A stretch of DNA of 64,000 nucleotides from Nitrospirota bacterium (GTDB lineage: Bacteria > Nitrospirota > Thermodesulfovibrionia > Thermodesulfovibrionales > JdFR-86). Position numbers: made by a program. The stretch spans positions 704,001 to 768,000 of the forward strand of contig CAVRJY010000001.1 in NCBI GenBank assembly GCA_963721805.1, read 5' to 3'. Positions 27,001 to 33,000 of the stretch are shown in pieces (the stretch's first letter is position 1; the number at the start of each line of letters is the position of its first letter).

Positions 27001-30000
27001 CGGCGAGCACGATGTTCGCGAAGACAGGGCCGGGGCGGAACTCGAAGTCCCGCGTATCGGGGTTCAGGATGCTTACGCCGAGTATGTCGGAGGGGAGCAT
27101 GTCGCTCGTAAACTGTATCCGCTGAAAGGTGCAGTTTACGGCCTTGGCCAGCGCGAAGGCGAGCGTGGTCTTGCCCACGCCGGGCACGTCCTCGATCAGC
27201 AGGTGCCCCCGGCCCAGCAGGGTCGCGACCGCGAGCCTCACGGCCTCGGGCTTGCCCCTGATTATCGAGTTGAGGCGCGCCTCGAGCGCGGCGAGCCCCG
27301 TGTATGAGACGGTTTCGGTTCCCATTATGAAAATATAGCATTAATCGCATAGGTTTTGAACCGGCGCGGGCTGCCGCCCCGCAGTGTTTATGTTATACTT
27401 TCCGCAGAAGATGCCTTATGTATAAGGGGGCTGCTTGAACGTACAGGTCGACAACCTCGAGCCGGGCATGAAGCTCGCCAGGGACATCACGAACGAATCT
27501 GGGATGGTGCTCATCGTGCGCTCTACCCTGCTGACGCCCGAGCTCATCAAGCGCCTGCAGGGCATGGCTATAGACAGCGTCAGCATCGTCGCGCCCGGAA
27601 GCTCGATGCCGCCCAAGGACCGCATCTTCGCCGAGCTCCAGAAGCGCTTCTCCAAGACCAACGGGGACCCGAACATGGACCACCTCCGCCAGCTCTTCGA
27701 GGCCCGGCTGGACGAGCTCTACAGGGACGCCCCGTGAAGGACGCCCGCATACTGCGCGAAGAGATCGAGAACATCGACACGCTCCCGACGATCCCAAGCG
27801 TGCTGCAGCGCCTCCTGCGCGTCATCGAAAACCCCAAGGTCTCCCTTAACGAGATCAGCAATACGATACTCAGCGACCCGGTACTGACCTCGCGCGTGCT
27901 GAAGCTCGTAAACTCGCCTATATACGGCTTCCCCGGCAGGATCAGCTCGCTCACTCAGGCCCTGATACTGCTCGGCCTCAACGTGGTCAGGGGCATGCTG
28001 CTCGGCGTATCGGTGTTCGAGGCCATGGAGATGACTATGACCGGGCTTTGGAAGCACTCGCTCGGCTGCGCCGTGACGGCGCGCCTCGTGGCGAAGCGCG
28101 TCGGGGCCTCCGAGCCCGAGGAGATCGCGGTCGCGGCCCTGCTGCACGACATCGGCAAGGTCGTGCTCAAGCTCAAGTATCCCGAGGACTACTCTGCGGT
28201 GATCAAGAGGACCGAGGAGTCCGGGATGTACATAGTCGAGGTCGAGAAGGAGATATTCCATATCACGCACGCCGACGCCGGCTCGTGGATAGCGCAGAAG
28301 TGGAACTTCCCCAAGCACCTCGTCGAGGCCATAGCATATCACCACAAGCCTCAGATCGCCCGAAACGTCCCGATGCACGCCGCCATAGTGCACTTCTCCG
28401 ACGCGCTCGTGCGGGCCAAGGGCTTCGGGTTTTCCGGCGACCCCTACGTGCCGCAGGTCCACCCGGCGGCCTGGAAGCTCCTGAACCTCTCCGACGGGGA
28501 GGTCATGGACCTGCTTCGGGAGCTCGACGACGCCCTGAGCGTGGCCGAAGACACGATCCTGAGCGATGACTAACGACCAGCCCTCGATAACCGTTATCTC
28601 AAGGGACGAGGGGTTCAAGGACATGGTCTCCGGCCTGCTCGGAGACAGGTACGTGCTCGTCAACTTCCCTGACATCCAGACCTCGATAGACTATATCTAC
28701 AACTCGCTGCCGAGCATGGTCCTGATCCACCTGCTCAAGGACGACCGCCTCTCTCCCTCGATACTCAAGGCCTTCAAGAGCGACCCGATATTCTCTCAGC
28801 TCCCGGTGCTCGGCGTGCTGGAGGACGGCTACGTAATCCCCTCATGGGACTTCCTGCTGGTGGACGATTTCATCCGGGGCATCGACGTGGTGGCGGACCT
28901 CTCGCTGCGCGCGGACCTCTGCGTAAAGCGCTCCGAGCGCATGGTGGACGTAAGCCCCCTGACCAAACTTCCGGGCAATATCGCGATATTAAAGCAGGTC
29001 CAGAGCAGGCTCTCGCGCGGCGAGAAGTTCGCGCTCGCCTACTGCGACCTGGACCACTTCAAGCCCTTCAACGACCGCTACGGCTTCGGCCGCGGAGATG
29101 AGGTCATAAAGATGCTCGGCCGCCTGATCCTCAACAGCGTGTTAGAGGCCCAGCCCGTAGGTAGCTTCGTCGGCCACATCGGAGGAGACGACTTCATCTT
29201 CATCACCGAGACCGCGGTCGCGGACCAGACCGCGCACAGCATCACGGAGTTCTTCGACAACATCATCCCGACCTTCTATGACCAGGCGGACAACGAGGCC
29301 GGCTGCATCGCCTCGGTCGACCGCGAGGGCAAGCAGCGCCAGTTCCCGATCATGAGCCTCTCGATAGGCATCGCGCACAACCTGAGCCGGAGCTTCATAC
29401 ACTTCGGGGAGATGGCCGAGGCGGCGTCGGAGATGAAGAAGTATGCTAAGAACCACGAAGGCAGCTTCGTGGTGATGGACAGACGCAGGTAGGGTTCTGT
29501 CGCTTCGCTGGAAAGACGCGCTAAATACGCGTGATACTGCGTCAGTGCTTCAAAGACACGCCCTCGGAGTACGTCTCAGTACACCGTCGGGCGGTCTTCT
29601 CGCCCTTCCTTGTCTGACGCGATTTATCGCGCTTTGGTGATACGCGCAGGGTCAAGCGCGAGCGGTCAACGGCATTGGAAAAACTTTATGGTTATAAGGG
29701 TTAGTTTTTGGGGACAAACGAATACACGACGCCACTATTTGGCAATAACCATTCATTATACTGCATTGAAAAGAAACCTTCACGATGATCCTCAATAACC
29801 TTTTCTGGATGAGAGACCATCGGCTGAAACCTTAATTTCATTTCTTTAGGATATGATATTGTCATATAAAAAGTTTTTGTGGGATGTGCCATTGACCAAT
29901 TTGAAAACTGGCCTGTTTCCATTTTATAGACTGATTTTAATTCCACATACAATCCATTTTCGCTAAAATTACTCAAGGGGAAAATTAGTCCCTTTTGTTC

Positions 30001-33000
30001 AATTTCACTGCGCGGAACTTGCTTCTCAGTGCCATTGCATTTAACAACAAATTCATCATCTTTCTTATTCATTGACAATACGGGGTTGTTTTTTACCTTC
30101 ATTTCAACGCTTATAATATCTAAGAACTCTCCTGGATCTGGCTTCCACTTTATAGTATCCTGAATTTTTCCGCCAACCATTTTACAGGCATATGTAAGTC
30201 TATCGCTAATTAAAATACCTGGCGGTTCATCTGACTCTTCCACTACAATCTCGCACTTAACGTTATCTCTATATGGTTCGCTAATATACTTACTTAAGTT
30301 ATCCTGAAAATAATTCAAAAAACTTCCTTCCTTATCTATATCTGAGGTATGAAAATATGCTTTCAAGGTCTTAATCTGAAGATTTGAAAGGGTTTCTTGA
30401 TCCATAGAATTTAAATATTCTTGTTCCAAAACTACATTTTTCAATCTTTCCTCAAAATAATGCTGCCAATCAGGTAATTGCAAAAAGAAAGAAAATATGC
30501 CAGATGTGAAAATCGTGAAACCAAGCAGCTCAAAAAAATTATATATCAGCTTAGATATATCCGATGCTTTTTCAAAATCCGCCGGTTTATTATAAAGAGT
30601 TATTATCGCGATTAATAATCCCATTGATACCAAAAGAGTCGCGGACAAAACACTTAGCTTTCTCAGAATGTGTAAAATCTTCTTTTCTTTCTTTCCAGTT
30701 ATCACGAAGAGTTCCGCCTAACAGTGATTTTACGTTGCTGTTATCATAAGTGAACATGCACATTAAATGCAATAAATATTGCAGAAAAAAAAGAACATTA
30801 GCGGCACTTGTGATCAATGCCGTTGACCGCTCGCGCGATTAGCACACAGCACCACCAAAGCGCGATAAATTAGGCTCAGACAAGGAACGGCGAGGACCCC
30901 AACCGGAGGCGTACTGTGTCGTACGTTGAGGATTGGGGCCGCAGCCGTGACGCAGTATCAGGCAATTTAGCGCGGCTTTCCAATCCGCCCCTCTATCAAG
31001 AGATCAGGCCCGACGCGCCGCACCGTCATATCCCCTACCATGAGCGCGTCTTCGAGTTTGCGGAACGCATCGCCCCCGACGACCGGGAATGAGCGCAGCC
31101 CCGCCGATGATCTTGGGAGCGACGAATATCATCACCCGGTCCACGATGCCCTCCATCAGGGCATGGCCGTTGAGTGTCGCTCCACCCTCGATCAGCACCG
31201 AGTTCATCCCGATAGAGCCAAGCTCCCGAAGCAGCCACTTCAAGTCGAGCGTGCCCTTGTAGCCCAGTATCCTCACCCCGCGCGCCTCGAACGAGCGCGC
31301 CAGAGCACCACCACTCTCCCTCGTAACGATGATCGTATCCGGCGGGGTCTGAAGCACCCGTGCGCTGTCCGCGATGCGAAGTGACGGGTCGATGACCACG
31401 CGCACCGGCTGGTGCGCACCTCGAATGCGCGCGGTGAGTTCCGGGTCGTCGGCCGCTACGGTGCCGATCCCTGTGATGACCGCGTCCACCGAAGAGCGGA
31501 GCCTGTGCACGATCTTGCGCGCCGGTGCCGAGGTGATCCATTTCGACTGGCCCTCGGGTGTGGCGATCTTGCCATCTAGCGTCATCGCGGCCTTCAGGGT
31601 GACGAACGGGAGCCCGGTCGTGATTTGCTTGATATATGCCTCGTTGAGTGCGCGGGCCTTGTCCTCGAGCACGCAGCAGGTCGTCTTGATCCCGGCCGCC
31701 TCGATCTCGGCGATGCCCCGGCCCGAGACCTTCGGGTTTGGGTCCCTCATCGCGACCACCACGCGGGCCACTCCCGAGGCGATGATCGCTTTTGTGCAGG
31801 GCGGGGTGCGCTTCTTGGTGTGGCAGCAGGGCTCCAAAGAGACATAGAGCGTCGCACCACGCGCTTTCTCGCCCGCGCTTTGGAGCACGAGCGCCTCGGC
31901 GTGAGGCGTGCCTGCCCTGCGGTGGTAGTCCTCGGCGATGACCCGCCCGGAGCGCACCAGCACCGCGCCGACCATCGGGTTCGGGCTCGTGCGGCCCCGG
32001 CCGCGCGCAGCGAGCGCCAGGGCGCGTTTCATGTATAAAACATCGTCCATCCGGTAATATACCACAATCGCCCCGGCAGGCCATCAGGGTGCGGGCTGTG
32101 GTATAATTAGTGATTAATTTCACCAACCAGGAGGCTTAATATGGCAGAAGGTTTGGTCAACGTTACGACGTCCTCGTGGGACGCGGAGGTGCTGAAGTCC
32201 GATACTCTCGTGATGGTGGATTTCTGGGCCGTATGGTGCGGCCCGTGCCGGATGATCGCGCCGACCGTCGAGCAGCTCGCGCAGGAATACGCAGGCAAGA
32301 TCAAGGTCTGCAAGCTCAACACCGACGAGAACCCGGACATAGCGAGCAAATACAAGATAATGGGCATCCCGACCGTGATGTTCTTCAAGGGCGGGGAGAT
32401 CAAGGACCAGGTCGTGGGCGCCGTGCCGAAGAGCCAGCTCAAGGCCAAGATCGACAGCCTCGTATAATGAAGTTTTTTAGCGGACCGGGAACCTGGGCCA
32501 TCGCCCTGATGGTGCTGCTCGCGCTTGCGGCCTGTCAGGCCAAGCCCAAGGCAGTATCCACGGCAGGCGGCCCCGCCGCGCTCGACCTAAAGCGAGCCGA
32601 CGGGACGGACTTCGACCCCTCGACGCTCAAAGGCAAGGTCGTGCTGATCGAGTTCTGGGCCACGTGGTGCCCGCCGTGCAAGATGGCGATCCCGGACATC
32701 AAGGCGCTCAGCGAGAAGGTCAAGGGCACCGATATCGAGGTGGTCACTGTAGCCATAGATGACAAGGCCGAGGACGTCTCGGCGTTCGTAAAGGAAAACA
32801 ACCTGCCGTACCTCGTGCTGCACGACGACGGCAGGGCGACCAAGGAATACGGGGTCCGCGGCGTGCCGACCTCGGTCGTACTCGACAAGACCGGCAAGGT
32901 CGTCGAGACCCACATGGGCTACATGACCGGCTATGCGGACGAAATGCTCATAGAACTGAAGAAATACCTATAAAATGTTCGATTCTCTAAGCGGAAAGCT

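Follow-up and report, generated by a model that had tools for sequence, protein, structure and literature searches.

A mosaic hairpin repeat frames low-GC gene cassettes head to head in a Nitrospirota genome and may be where they dock

Paired repeats in bacterial genomes include REPIN doublets, in which two similar partners lie tens of bases apart, and MITEs (such as the Correia elements of Neisseria) and MITE-flanked integron mobilisation units, where genes lying between a pair of copies can be moved by them. Elements of the IS200/IS605 kind have asymmetric hairpin ends, make no target duplication and insert beside a short word. REP and BIME sequences are described as abundant structured extragenic palindromes, often located behind genes, with a mosaic build and alternating orientation (PMC2817692). 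Reports on Acinetobacter plasmid dif modules describe 28-bp XerC/D sites (PMC6449649, PMC13141974, PMC10132070, PMC12907356), and those on integron cassettes describe attC as structured, sequence-variable hairpin sites (PMC13108822, PMC11023631, PMC4792948).

We analysed a window of 64,000 nt from a Nitrospirota bacterium (contig CAVRJY010000001.1), together with the rest of the genome, which is small and 94% complete. An earlier note had singled out one span of the window as a clean example of a repeat, a single 334-aa gene of 34% GC and an inverted repeat. This description stands: the unit lies between a GGDEF gene and ribD, which flank it convergently, and it consists of two copies of a repeat called modA around one gene.

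28566..29492, plus strand: native GGDEF gene (Pfam GGDEF, E = 3.4e-15)
29511..29677, plus strand: left modA copy, tail at 29511 (nhmmer model 4-172, 140 bits)
29701..30705, minus strand: cargo ORF, 334 aa, 34% GC (ORF and translation)
30812..30980, minus strand: right modA copy, head towards the cargo (nhmmer model 4-175, 100 bits)
31004..32065, minus strand: native ribD (Pfam RibD_C and deaminase domain)

The stop codon of the GGDEF gene (GC ~0.61) lies 18 nt before the left modA tail, and that of ribD 23 nt beyond the right one; orthologues of ribD (61–66% identical) are present in 9 of the 10 family genomes. The interior of 1134 nt has a GC content of 0.31–0.35, compared with ~0.61 in the flanks. 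The left head ends ...GGTCAACGGCATTGG at 29677. Our covariance model (R1) matched the left copy at 29508-29640 (132 bits, against 26 bits for the opposite strand) and the right copy at 30852-30983 on the minus strand with 125 bits; five inverted-repeat arms link the two copies, two of them perfect (22 and 18 nt). The cargo protein has a hydrophobic N-terminal region, with two putative membrane helices judged by eye, followed by a conserved domain; the protein had no hits in Pfam or PADLOC and could be assigned to no family. Besides itself, it has only 19 relatives among 5.8 billion clusters, none of them named, and a modA-type frame was absent from the 18 metagenome loci of such relatives; a 32% paralogue occupies another slot of this genome (L021).

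Iterated nhmmer searches of the whole genome gave 245 non-overlapping modA copies of ~175 nt each, 172 of them full length, where 226 had been counted before. These derive from 462 hits on both strands, the other 217 being weaker opposite-strand matches of the palindromic element. The core of modA is a hairpin of ~125 nt with a 44-bp stem, whose arms include ~20 nt of inverted sequence at start and end, and its 3' head comprises a variable second hairpin, then the near-invariant GGTCAACGGCAT, then TTGATTAG. Across copies, canonical pairing holds in 88.5% of cells for the 44 pairs of the long stem (32–46% when the 3' partner is slid), and compensatory change is seen in three or more copies at 18 pairs, compared with 6–10 in slid controls, which upholds the previously reported covariation; folds of single sequences give weak z-scores (-1.8 and -1.3). 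Copies share a mean identity of only ~0.70, and core and head are strongly shuffled among them (adjusted mutual information 0.16), with the largest core cluster, of 71 copies, bearing at least six head types. We class modA as an intergenic repeat of mosaic build, akin to MITEs and REPINs. As had been reported, it matches no Rfam family: at gathering thresholds the whole window yielded a tRNA and a fluoride riboswitch and nothing else, and the stretch of modA and its companion module modB (below) had no match even at E ≤ 1. The hairpin has no T run behind it on either strand, and modA is therefore not a canonical terminator.

The two ends of modA face different DNA. The 300-nt flank beyond the head has a GC content below 0.5 in 88 of the 172 full copies and that beyond the tail in 5 of 172 (background, 7.5% of 20,000 random windows; Wilcoxon p = 4.6e-24), in agreement with the polarity claimed earlier. 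Adjacent copies form 239 pairs: 74 head to head (median gap 1550 nt), 72 tail to tail (9224 nt) and 93 in tandem. Among pairs with gaps of 100–10,000 nt, low-GC interiors occur in 41/60 head-to-head, 0/39 tail-to-tail and 6/59 tandem pairs, which confirms the head-to-head framing of low-GC interiors (41/60 vs 6/98 in other pair types; Fisher p = 5.5e-17). Low GC at the head is confined almost wholly to pairs: ~82 of the 88 low-GC heads belong to the 41 low-GC pairs. Head-to-head interiors of up to 15 kb number 69, together 142.8 kb, and 6 contigs carry such units. The genes around the 47 pairs with both tails intact are convergent in 16 cases, tandem in 24 and divergent in 7 (464, 1574 and 461 genome-wide); as all three occur, we consider the pair to be a unit and not a by-product of gene geometry. 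Similarity between the two arms of one pair does not exceed that between random copies (0.70 vs 0.69, p = 0.9), and no direct repeats outside the tails were seen in these 47 pairs when judged by eye. Not every interior is low-GC (19/60 are not, some with plainly native genes such as ruvABC or efflux pumps), and 92 of 177 low-GC segments lack a modA copy within 300 nt. Seven empty pairs had been claimed; here, only two of the nine head-to-head pairs with a gap of ≤200 nt have both heads complete. The one clean empty pair consists of a full head, then 3 nt, then a head cut at GGCA.

Gene-context statistics for tails and arms come from our own crude longest-ORF caller, by which 125 of 221 tails face a gene 3' end, at a median of 13 nt, and the other 96 a 5' end. 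With such a caller and that many 5' ends, the idea that tails abut gene 3' ends survives as a tendency only, not as a rule. Many tails lie 5–20 nt behind stop codons, some straight after the T run of a native terminator; the tails have sharp boundaries and a T-rich preference upstream of them. There are 64 full-length solo copies.

Two further slots, a solo copy and a partial copy lie in the same window.

18319-18359, plus strand: truncated modA closing the second slot (nhmmer model 2-41)
18360..19677, minus strand: second slot cargo, a DUF4258/DUF2283 pair at 19160-19626 (Pfam) and two family-less ORFs
19678..20025, minus strand: second slot modB (nhmmer model 1-359, 328 bits)
20026..20203, minus strand: second slot modA, the modB-linked arm (nhmmer 158 bits)
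34319..34487, plus strand: solo modA, 25 nt after ffh (nhmmer 126 bits)
55534..55637, plus strand: partial or diverged modA, hairpin part only (nhmmer model 2-106; R1 70 bits)
56721..56810, plus strand: modA head part only, left arm of the third slot (nhmmer model 93-175)
58294..59499, minus strand: IS481-like insertion sequence in the third slot (Pfam rve and HTH domains)
59564..59847, minus strand: third slot modB, model 12-260 only, adjoining the right-arm head (nhmmer 118 bits)
59841..60018, minus strand: third slot modA, right arm (nhmmer 140 bits; R1 139 bits)

The head of the solo copy faces an islet of 2.5 kb (~34.5-37.0 kb, GC 0.35-0.45), and neither a partner copy nor a second R1 hit was found nearby. 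The third slot (56.7-60.0 kb) holds a PLD-like gene with Pfam PLDc_2 and PADLOC DrmC/ZacB-like matches. Its insertion sequence encodes a 344-aa rve transposase, has TGT..ACA ends and an 8-bp duplication (CCCCGGAA), and is joined in the genome by ten further near-identical copies (98–100%, 1200–1316 nt).

As these slots illustrate, many units carry modB, a non-coding module of 361 nt with 57 copies in the genome (nhmmer), of which 50 begin within 20 nt of a modA head in the same orientation. The junction is at a fixed base, GGTCAACGGCA followed by TGTTC; in the second slot it reads GGTCAACGGCA and then TGTTCTGATG, and the modB there has a TATAGT box, a CG palindrome then a T run, and repeated TGTTCGGAT words. 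Among the 60 interiors, modB is found at exactly one head in 37 (13 left, 24 right) and at both in none, with 23 lacking it; if 37 modB were placed randomly on 120 heads, the probability of having no doubly occupied pair would be 2.6e-4. The arms also differ in context, as tails lie within 40 nt of a gene 3' end in 7/36 modB-side arms and 16/29 opposite arms (Fisher p = 0.004), compared with 43/103 solo copies and 0/11 solo copies bearing modB. By subtypes defined with regular expressions (the class "other" being T1-like only by eye), the modB side has 25 T2, 7 T4 and 5 other arms, and the opposite side 15 T2, 13 other, 3 T3 and 6 truncated. At the far end of the cassette there is sometimes modD, a fragment of the second hairpin; a modD-like motif lies behind 9/61 paired heads without modB, 1/63 solo heads and 0/36 modB-side heads. 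These results support reading the interiors as cassette-like, with modB and modD as their own conserved end modules. That the cassettes are polar is a new finding of this analysis.

The earlier note's emphasis on defence and toxin-antitoxin genes is borne out, as 22/60 interiors have toxin-antitoxin, restriction-modification or defence hits in our reading of the search results. Only two insertion sequences and distant paralogues are common to several slots. We looked for a mobilising enzyme. Transposases in the cargo belong only to two ordinary insertion sequences (IS481-like and IS200-like), which pile up at the same places as modA. Matches to PF01797 (Y1 transposase) comprised only six identical copies of the IS200-like element (602 bp), which has the hairpin CCCCGTGGCTTGCCACGGGG at both ends, unlike modA, modB and modD; TnpB was not found. 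No parent insertion sequence sharing the modA tail was present in the genome, from which, at 94% completeness, one could be missing; the IS481-like ends (TGTAAAAG...) and the IS200-like ends differ from that tail. Tyrosine recombinases occur at 7 loci, none beside a modA pair by inspection of coordinates, and neither a reverse transcriptase nor an integron-like platform was found near the units. Among other genomes of the family, the covariance model found the hairpin core in 3/10 (sister genera), the same count as given before for diverged copies. There it has a different 3' extension, no modA head and no cargo, and because it also lacks modB and GC polarity, the hairpin predates the cassettes.

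From the anatomy, counts and asymmetry described above we infer docking, its direction and the class of enzyme. In our preferred reading (probability roughly 0.35), polar non-autonomous cassettes dock onto the heads of modA copies already in place, moved by a putative enzyme acting in trans. The hairpin core, older than the genus, would have been amplified to ~245 copies in this genome and gained its head, and many copies would have been parked a dozen bases behind native stop codons. One end of the cassette would be modB fused to an inverted modA that travels along; the other end, sometimes marked by modD, would join an intact resident head just after TTGATTAG. Each docking event would then yield a head-to-head pair around unique cargo, without target duplication. 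The enzyme may be akin to those of the single-strand/HUH type (IS200/IS605, IS91), which the asymmetric ends, the hairpins beside both junctions, the fixed joining point by TTGAT and the lack of junction overlap and target duplication suggest over DDE transposons or tyrosine recombinases. Several points count against docking. The searches tied no enzyme to the system; 23/60 interiors lack modB, 19/60 are not low-GC, and about half of the low-GC segments have no modA close by; and the context and subtype figures depend on our own gene caller and on regular expressions. No cassette occurs twice in the genome, hence there is no sign of recent movement; in 13 modB-free pairs with two intact heads, the median lower score (5.30) is near the 5.53 expected (P = 0.47), so neither head looks truncated; and an orientation-specific transposon moving the whole unit would give the same arm asymmetry.

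The earlier note had read the pairs as fixed slots for exchangeable cassettes. In the form considered here, exchange by homologous recombination, inverted modA pairs would be resident and a double crossover within their two 175-nt arms would swap cargo between strains or slots, with the inverted order guarding it from loop-out deletion. The note's reading is supported in part. The repeat, its polarity and the head-to-head frames around low-GC DNA rich in defence and toxin-antitoxin genes were confirmed well above chance, while fixed slots and cargo exchange are hypothetical: only two pairs are truly empty, cargo is not shared between slots apart from the two insertion sequences and distant paralogues, and relatives of the example cargo elsewhere lack the frame. 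The shuffling of core and head is the trace expected of crossovers inside modA, the arms of a pair are unrelated, and the cargo is typical of a flexible genome. However, an identity of ~0.70 is poor for recombination over 175 nt, and this model leaves unexplained why heads and not tails face cargo (no tail-to-tail interior is low-GC), how ~60 pairs arose when only 2 are empty, and why modB is one-sided and the arm contexts differ. As the arms are unlike in context and subtype, an incoming polar element at a resident copy fits better than a symmetric, pre-made slot, and we regard fixed slots as unlikely.

Alternatively, the whole unit could be a transposon moved in trans, with modA as a long terminal inverted repeat, the tails as termini, differentiated ends (modA and modB on the left, modD and modA on the right) and solo copies as MITE derivatives. 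Inverted ends framing cargo, the 20-nt inverted termini of the hairpin, the consistent left and right end modules and the sharp tail boundaries with their T-rich preference all suit this model. It is nonetheless quite improbable given that the 47 pairs lack target duplications, no cargo is in two places, paired arms resemble each other no more than randomly chosen copies do, full solo copies number 64, sister genera have the hairpin without cargo, and no insertion sequence in the genome has the modA tail sequence. That there is no mechanistic link at all, and that modA is terminator- or insulator-like, tolerated or selected at gene ends and gathering at borders of foreign DNA that enters permissive intergenic regions by other routes, would account for the tails just behind stops or native terminators, the two insertion sequences piling up at the same places, and the half of low-GC segments without modA. 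We consider this very unlikely, as low-GC heads are almost all in pairs, pairs also occur in tandem and divergent contexts, the modB junction is at one fixed base, and the hairpin without a T run is no canonical terminator.

Among known systems, modA resembles REP, REPIN and BIME sequences in being an abundant palindrome with conserved hairpins, often behind genes, in alternating orientation and of mosaic build. However, its unit is 175 nt and not 20–40 nt, and its pairs enclose kilobases of genes, not tens of bases. A REP/REPIN-RAYT system was rejected, as no single-copy RAYT flanked by repeats was found and PF01797 matched only the IS200-like copies. In its length, its 245 copies, its non-coding, intergenic nature and its inverted termini modA is like a MITE, but no target duplication was seen by eye in 47 pairs, this 94% complete genome has no parent insertion sequence with matching ends, and, unlike in MITE-flanked units, a strict heads-inward polarity holds in ~60 units with different cargo each. 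Like dif modules, the cassettes carry toxin-antitoxin and accessory genes, have no recombinase of their own and have inverted polar boundaries at sites targeted by insertion sequences. Their frame is a 175-nt chromosomal hairpin, whereas dif modules have 28-bp sites and are mostly on plasmids; the modA head is not visibly dif-like, and the two junctions have no overlap sequence in common, although a tyrosine recombinase requires one. The palindrome that is implied (GGTCAACGGCA, 8 nt and TGCCGTTGACC) has an 11-8-11 shape but derives from one clean empty site only. With IS200/IS605 elements the cassettes share asymmetric ends, the lack of duplication, a fixed point beside TTGAT and, in 9/61 heads, a hairpin at the modD end; the resident Y1 element is unlike modA, modB and modD, and neither a cognate Y1 enzyme nor TnpB was found. 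With integron cassettes they share structured, sequence-variable hairpin sites, single or few genes poor in promoters and rich in toxin-antitoxin systems, deviating composition and an enzyme (here putative) in trans. An integron is one co-oriented array beside intI and attI, whereas modA units are scattered and framed by inverted copies; scatter over 6 contigs, inverted frames and, by inspection of coordinates, the lack of a tyrosine recombinase beside the pairs do not match an integron array. A tentative and somewhat doubtful extension is a distributed cassette-capture system, integron-like in logic and differently built, in which a putative enzyme would join polar cassettes, bringing a modB end and an inverted modA copy, to resident heads. 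If so, the chromosome would have some hundred or more docking sites behind genes, a genome-wide store of ~60 single- or few-gene defence, toxin-antitoxin and restriction cassettes, and a putative enzyme acting on hairpin DNA. The modA arrangement appears to be a cassette-docking mechanism that has not been described before.

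The genome assembly has 9 contigs (2.78 Mb, 60.7% GC), of which contig C1 measures 1.55 Mb; the window covers positions 704001–768000 of C1. For the example slot, coordinates, GC and ORF were re-derived, and the description in the earlier note (a repeat, one low-GC gene of 334 aa and an inverted repeat) proved correct. The slot is bounded by two copies of modA, a hairpin repeat with a tail at one end and a head at the other (3′) end:

29511–29677, + strand, left modA copy of about 175 nt, inverted relative to the right copy
30812–30980, − strand, right modA copy, inverted relative to the left copy

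The interior between the two heads (1134 nt, GC 0.31–0.35) holds a single 334-aa ORF on the minus strand. A native GGDEF gene and the native ribD converge on the slot from either side, with stop codons 18 and 23 nt from the outer repeat ends. The encoded protein has a hydrophobic N-terminal region, which by eye appears to form two membrane helices, followed by a conserved domain. It has no match in Pfam or PADLOC, and a large protein collection contained only 19 relatives besides itself. At 18 metagenome loci of these relatives modA was absent, and at the 9 loci checked for it no long inverted repeat bracketed the gene. A synteny comparison with 9 relatives placed none of this genome's ribD neighbours within 1.5 kb of ribD. 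Across the window, Rfam matched only a fluoride riboswitch (12473–12537, −, 58.6 bits) and a tRNA gene (16060–16132, +). Behind ffh, a low-GC islet (34488–37000) with a modA head on one side only carries a 348-aa ORF that matches no family, alongside an FAD-dependent oxidoreductase-like gene.

For modA, iterated nhmmer returned 462 hits; once 217 weaker matches to the opposite strand of the same palindromic sites are set aside, 245 copies remain (172 full length). The consensus comprises a long hairpin (model positions 5–124) ending in 20-nt inverted repeats, a variable second hairpin of several types, and a conserved head, GGTCAACGGCAT, followed by the weaker TTGATTAG. Covariation supports the long stem: over its 44 pairs, 88.5% of cells show canonical pairing, compared with 32–46% when the partner column is slid, and 18 stem pairs show double changes in at least 3 copies, against 6–10 in the slid controls. 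Thermodynamics add little (single-copy folding z-scores of −1.8 and −1.3). Because RNAalifold on the full-length MAFFT alignment missed the stem (15 pairs), covariation was measured on the HMM-column alignment with the consensus fold, and the covariance model was built from a hairpin-only alignment. Copies score 123–139 bits with this model on the assigned strand and 26–34 bits on the other, so the strand assignment is safe. modA matched no Rfam family. Over all copies, the type of hairpin core is almost independent of the type of head (adjusted mutual information 0.16). In one subfamily (L001, L004, L006, L009, L011, L016, L032 and L049; alignment A1), the long stem has an additional small hairpin in its 3′ arm, a GC-rich insertion of about 40 nt. 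A minor variant (C2:287646–287755 and C4:310403–310512) lacks the usual head and terminates in ..CTTACGAAACCTATTTTTAGAGGTTGCC, the same 3′ extension as in copies of a sister genus (G003).

The two sides of modA differ in composition. The 300 nt beyond the head fall below 50% GC in 88/172 full copies, compared with 5/172 beyond the tail and a background of 7.5%, and low-GC heads belong almost entirely to head-to-head pairs. Adjacent copies are arranged head-to-head in 74 cases (median gap 1.55 kb), tail-to-tail in 72 (9.2 kb) and in tandem in 93. Considering gaps of 100–10,000 nt, interiors are low in GC in 41/60 head-to-head pairs, against 0/39 and 6/59 for the other types (p = 5.5e-17). Since pairs occur in convergent (16), tandem (24) and divergent (7) gene contexts, this geometry does not simply arise from repeats behind convergent genes. 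Genome-wide there are 177 low-GC segments (263.7 kb), 58 of which (88.4 kb) lie within head-to-head interiors. The earlier note had cautioned that many such segments have no modA nearby, and our count agrees: 92/177, including islands of 22 and 15.8 kb, have none within 300 nt. A third kind of repeat is a series of short, variable GC hairpins, with ..GTGAG and CGAATAG.. on either side of each (for example at 18360–18460 in the window and, past the heads of solo copies, at C1 382894, 495137 and 815262); such series often come next after the head of modA copies with normal-GC flanks.

The cassettes are polar, a feature new in this analysis. A 361-nt non-coding module, modB, is present in 57 copies; in 50 of them the start lies within 20 nt of a modA head that has the same orientation. 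Within modB are a TATAGT box, a CG palindrome with a T run, a 16-nt AT palindrome and the word TGTTCGGAT (four direct, one inverted), and no Rfam family matched the modA–modB stretch. ORFs overlapping modB were rejected as genes because they resemble conserved non-coding DNA read as protein. Of the 60 interiors, 37 carry modB at one head, 0 at both and 23 at neither (chance probability 2.6e-4). The modB-side junction is fixed: the head stops at GGTCAACGGCA and modB opens with TGTTC, while the opposite head retains GGCATTGATTAG. In the only clean empty pair (contig C5), one full head is followed by 3 nt and then by a head cut at GGCA. Another motif, modD, is a fragment that repeats the second hairpin's 3′ half and ends in GTGG; it lies behind 9/61 paired heads without modB, 1/63 solo heads and 0/36 modB-side heads. 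Cargo orientation does not support modB being a simple promoter leader: the nearest cargo ORF is co-directional with it in 21/35 interiors.

The two arms of a pair, that is, its two modA copies, also differ. In 7/36 modB-side arms and 16/29 opposite arms (p = 0.004), the 3′ end of a native gene is found within 40 nt of the tail, compared with 43/103 solo copies and 0/11 solo copies with modB. These figures, like the counts of pairs by gene context above, depend on our simple longest-ORF gene caller. Second-hairpin subtypes differ between the modB side and the opposite side as well.

The 60 interiors yielded 185 cargo ORFs (177 distinct). Toxin-antitoxin cargo includes DUF4160/DUF2442, MazE, two HigB/HigA, DUF4258/DUF2283, ParE/Phd, a HepT/MNT pair and a second HepT; restriction cargo includes an MmeI-type system, a type II pair and a methylase fused to Mrr; and other cargo proteins include KAP/PDC-S20, PDC-S59, PDC-S32, SIR2, TIR, PLD, HNH, HEPN and Abi_C. 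By our reading of the matches, toxin-antitoxin, restriction or defence-type genes are present in 22/60 interiors. Interiors that are not low in GC carry ordinary genes (ruvABC, efflux pumps, histidine kinases). No cassette is duplicated among the 60; the items that interiors have in common are an IS481-like element, an IS200-like element and distant paralogues. As most of the 177 distinct ORFs scanned lack a Pfam family, the interiors are a ready candidate list.

The two insertion sequences are located as follows:

58294–59499 in the window, IS481-like element, 1.2 kb, with ten further copies, 98–100% identical
C1:42213–42814 and C4:146413–147020, IS200-like element (two of 6 copies), 602 bp, same hairpin at both ends

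The IS481-like element is apparently active and has TGT..ACA ends, which differ from modA, with an 8-bp duplication. Six of its copies are inside head-to-head interiors, and four have a partial or variant modA copy within about 80–330 nt. One of its ends adjoins DNA that is itself repeated, a unit of about 110 nt found in places where the element is absent as well. The hairpin of the IS200-like element differs from those of the modA system. Two of its six copies abut the modB 3′ end exactly, suggesting that the target word of the element is located at this point. The genome gave no hit for reverse transcriptase, IS110 or TnpB, none of the seven tyrosine recombinases adjoins a pair, and the single serine recombinase sits in a 15.8-kb island without modA. 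Overall, no enzyme matching the cassette ends was found in the genome. Of the large low-GC islands without modA (C2:201–22200, C2:304201–311800, C2:315501–331300 and C2:337701–343600), three adjoin four tyrosine-recombinase genes and the sole serine-recombinase gene; these islands are probably ordinary prophage or integrative elements.

The modA system is well documented as anatomy, and its mechanism is what we infer. Our main reading, to which we give a probability of roughly 0.35, is that polar, non-autonomous cassettes dock at the heads of resident modA copies. Resident copies, typically parked behind genes, would act as docking sites, and an element ending in modB plus its own inverted modA would join the resident head just after TTGATTAG. 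Docking of this kind would explain why pairs appear in any gene context, why few are empty, why each cassette has one modB, why the modB-linked arm has a different context, and why the arms of a pair are unrelated to each other. The likeness of the two arms in a pair is 0.70, against 0.69 for random copies. The enzyme may be of the HUH type, acting by a single-strand mechanism, given the asymmetric ends, the hairpins beside the junctions, the fixed joining point next to TTGAT and the lack of a duplication. Integration by a tyrosine recombinase was rejected as the leading model, as the two junctions have no overlap sequence in common.

Several observations count against docking, namely the 23 interiors without modB, the heads of modB-free pairs, which show no truncation, no sign of recent movement, and the half of low-GC segments that have no modA. 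The same pairs have been read in the earlier note as fixed slots for exchangeable cassettes; exchange of slot content by homologous recombination is an explanation we regard as unlikely. Each frame with its content might also be a whole-unit transposon bearing modA as a long terminal repeat; no target duplications were seen at the pairs, and we hold this to be quite unlikely. Mere co-location of modA and foreign DNA was also weighed and appears improbable.

Among 10 other genera of the family, the hairpin covariance model found 25, 17 and 5–6 copies in three, bearing out the earlier report of diverged copies in 3 of 10 same-family genomes. These copies have a different 3′ extension and lack both the GGTCAACGGC head and modB, their two sides do not differ in GC, and one head-to-head pair encloses ordinary DNA. 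The hairpin is therefore older and family-wide, whereas the head, modB and the cassettes are lineage-specific. Only the covariance model reached the family copies: a BLAST search of 40 family and order genomes with a single modA copy as query gave no hit. A 22-base modA motif, which matches 119/172 of this genome's own copies, had no exact-pattern match in 185,579 species genomes or in JGI metagenomes, and viral contigs contained neither of two modB motifs. Sequencing runs gave one DNA match, a freshwater sediment metagenome (share 0.07), with no RNA run among those listed; its contigs, aligned to a 16-kb stretch, are mostly less than 90% alike to it, and none of the listed pieces spans the slot. 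The best RuvB matches (69–71% identity) come from assemblies labelled Nitrospirae, Nitrospiraceae or Thermodesulfovibrionia, and the taxon was taken from these matches. The source lineage is uncultured.

On the most sober reading, modA is a striking repeat family that organises about 5% of the genome. If docking is true, the system would add a mobile-element architecture, point to a hairpin-recognising enzyme and offer a simple sequence criterion by which new defence and toxin-antitoxin genes of the lineage could be found. At the level of abstracts, we found no description of such a hairpin-framed cassette system in the literature. As a repeat, modA is similar to MITEs and REPINs, but without the target duplication and parent insertion sequence of the former or the RAYT of the latter. 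In the way they store small accessory genes, its frames resemble dif modules and integron cassettes, but they have neither a recognisable Xer site or shared overlap, as in dif modules, nor the co-oriented array or integrase platform of an integron. If the frames mark real docking, they would be a second and independent solution to the task handled by integrons and dif modules, that of filing small accessory genes without a mobility enzyme for each; this one uses a 175-nt hairpin repeat and is spread across the chromosome.
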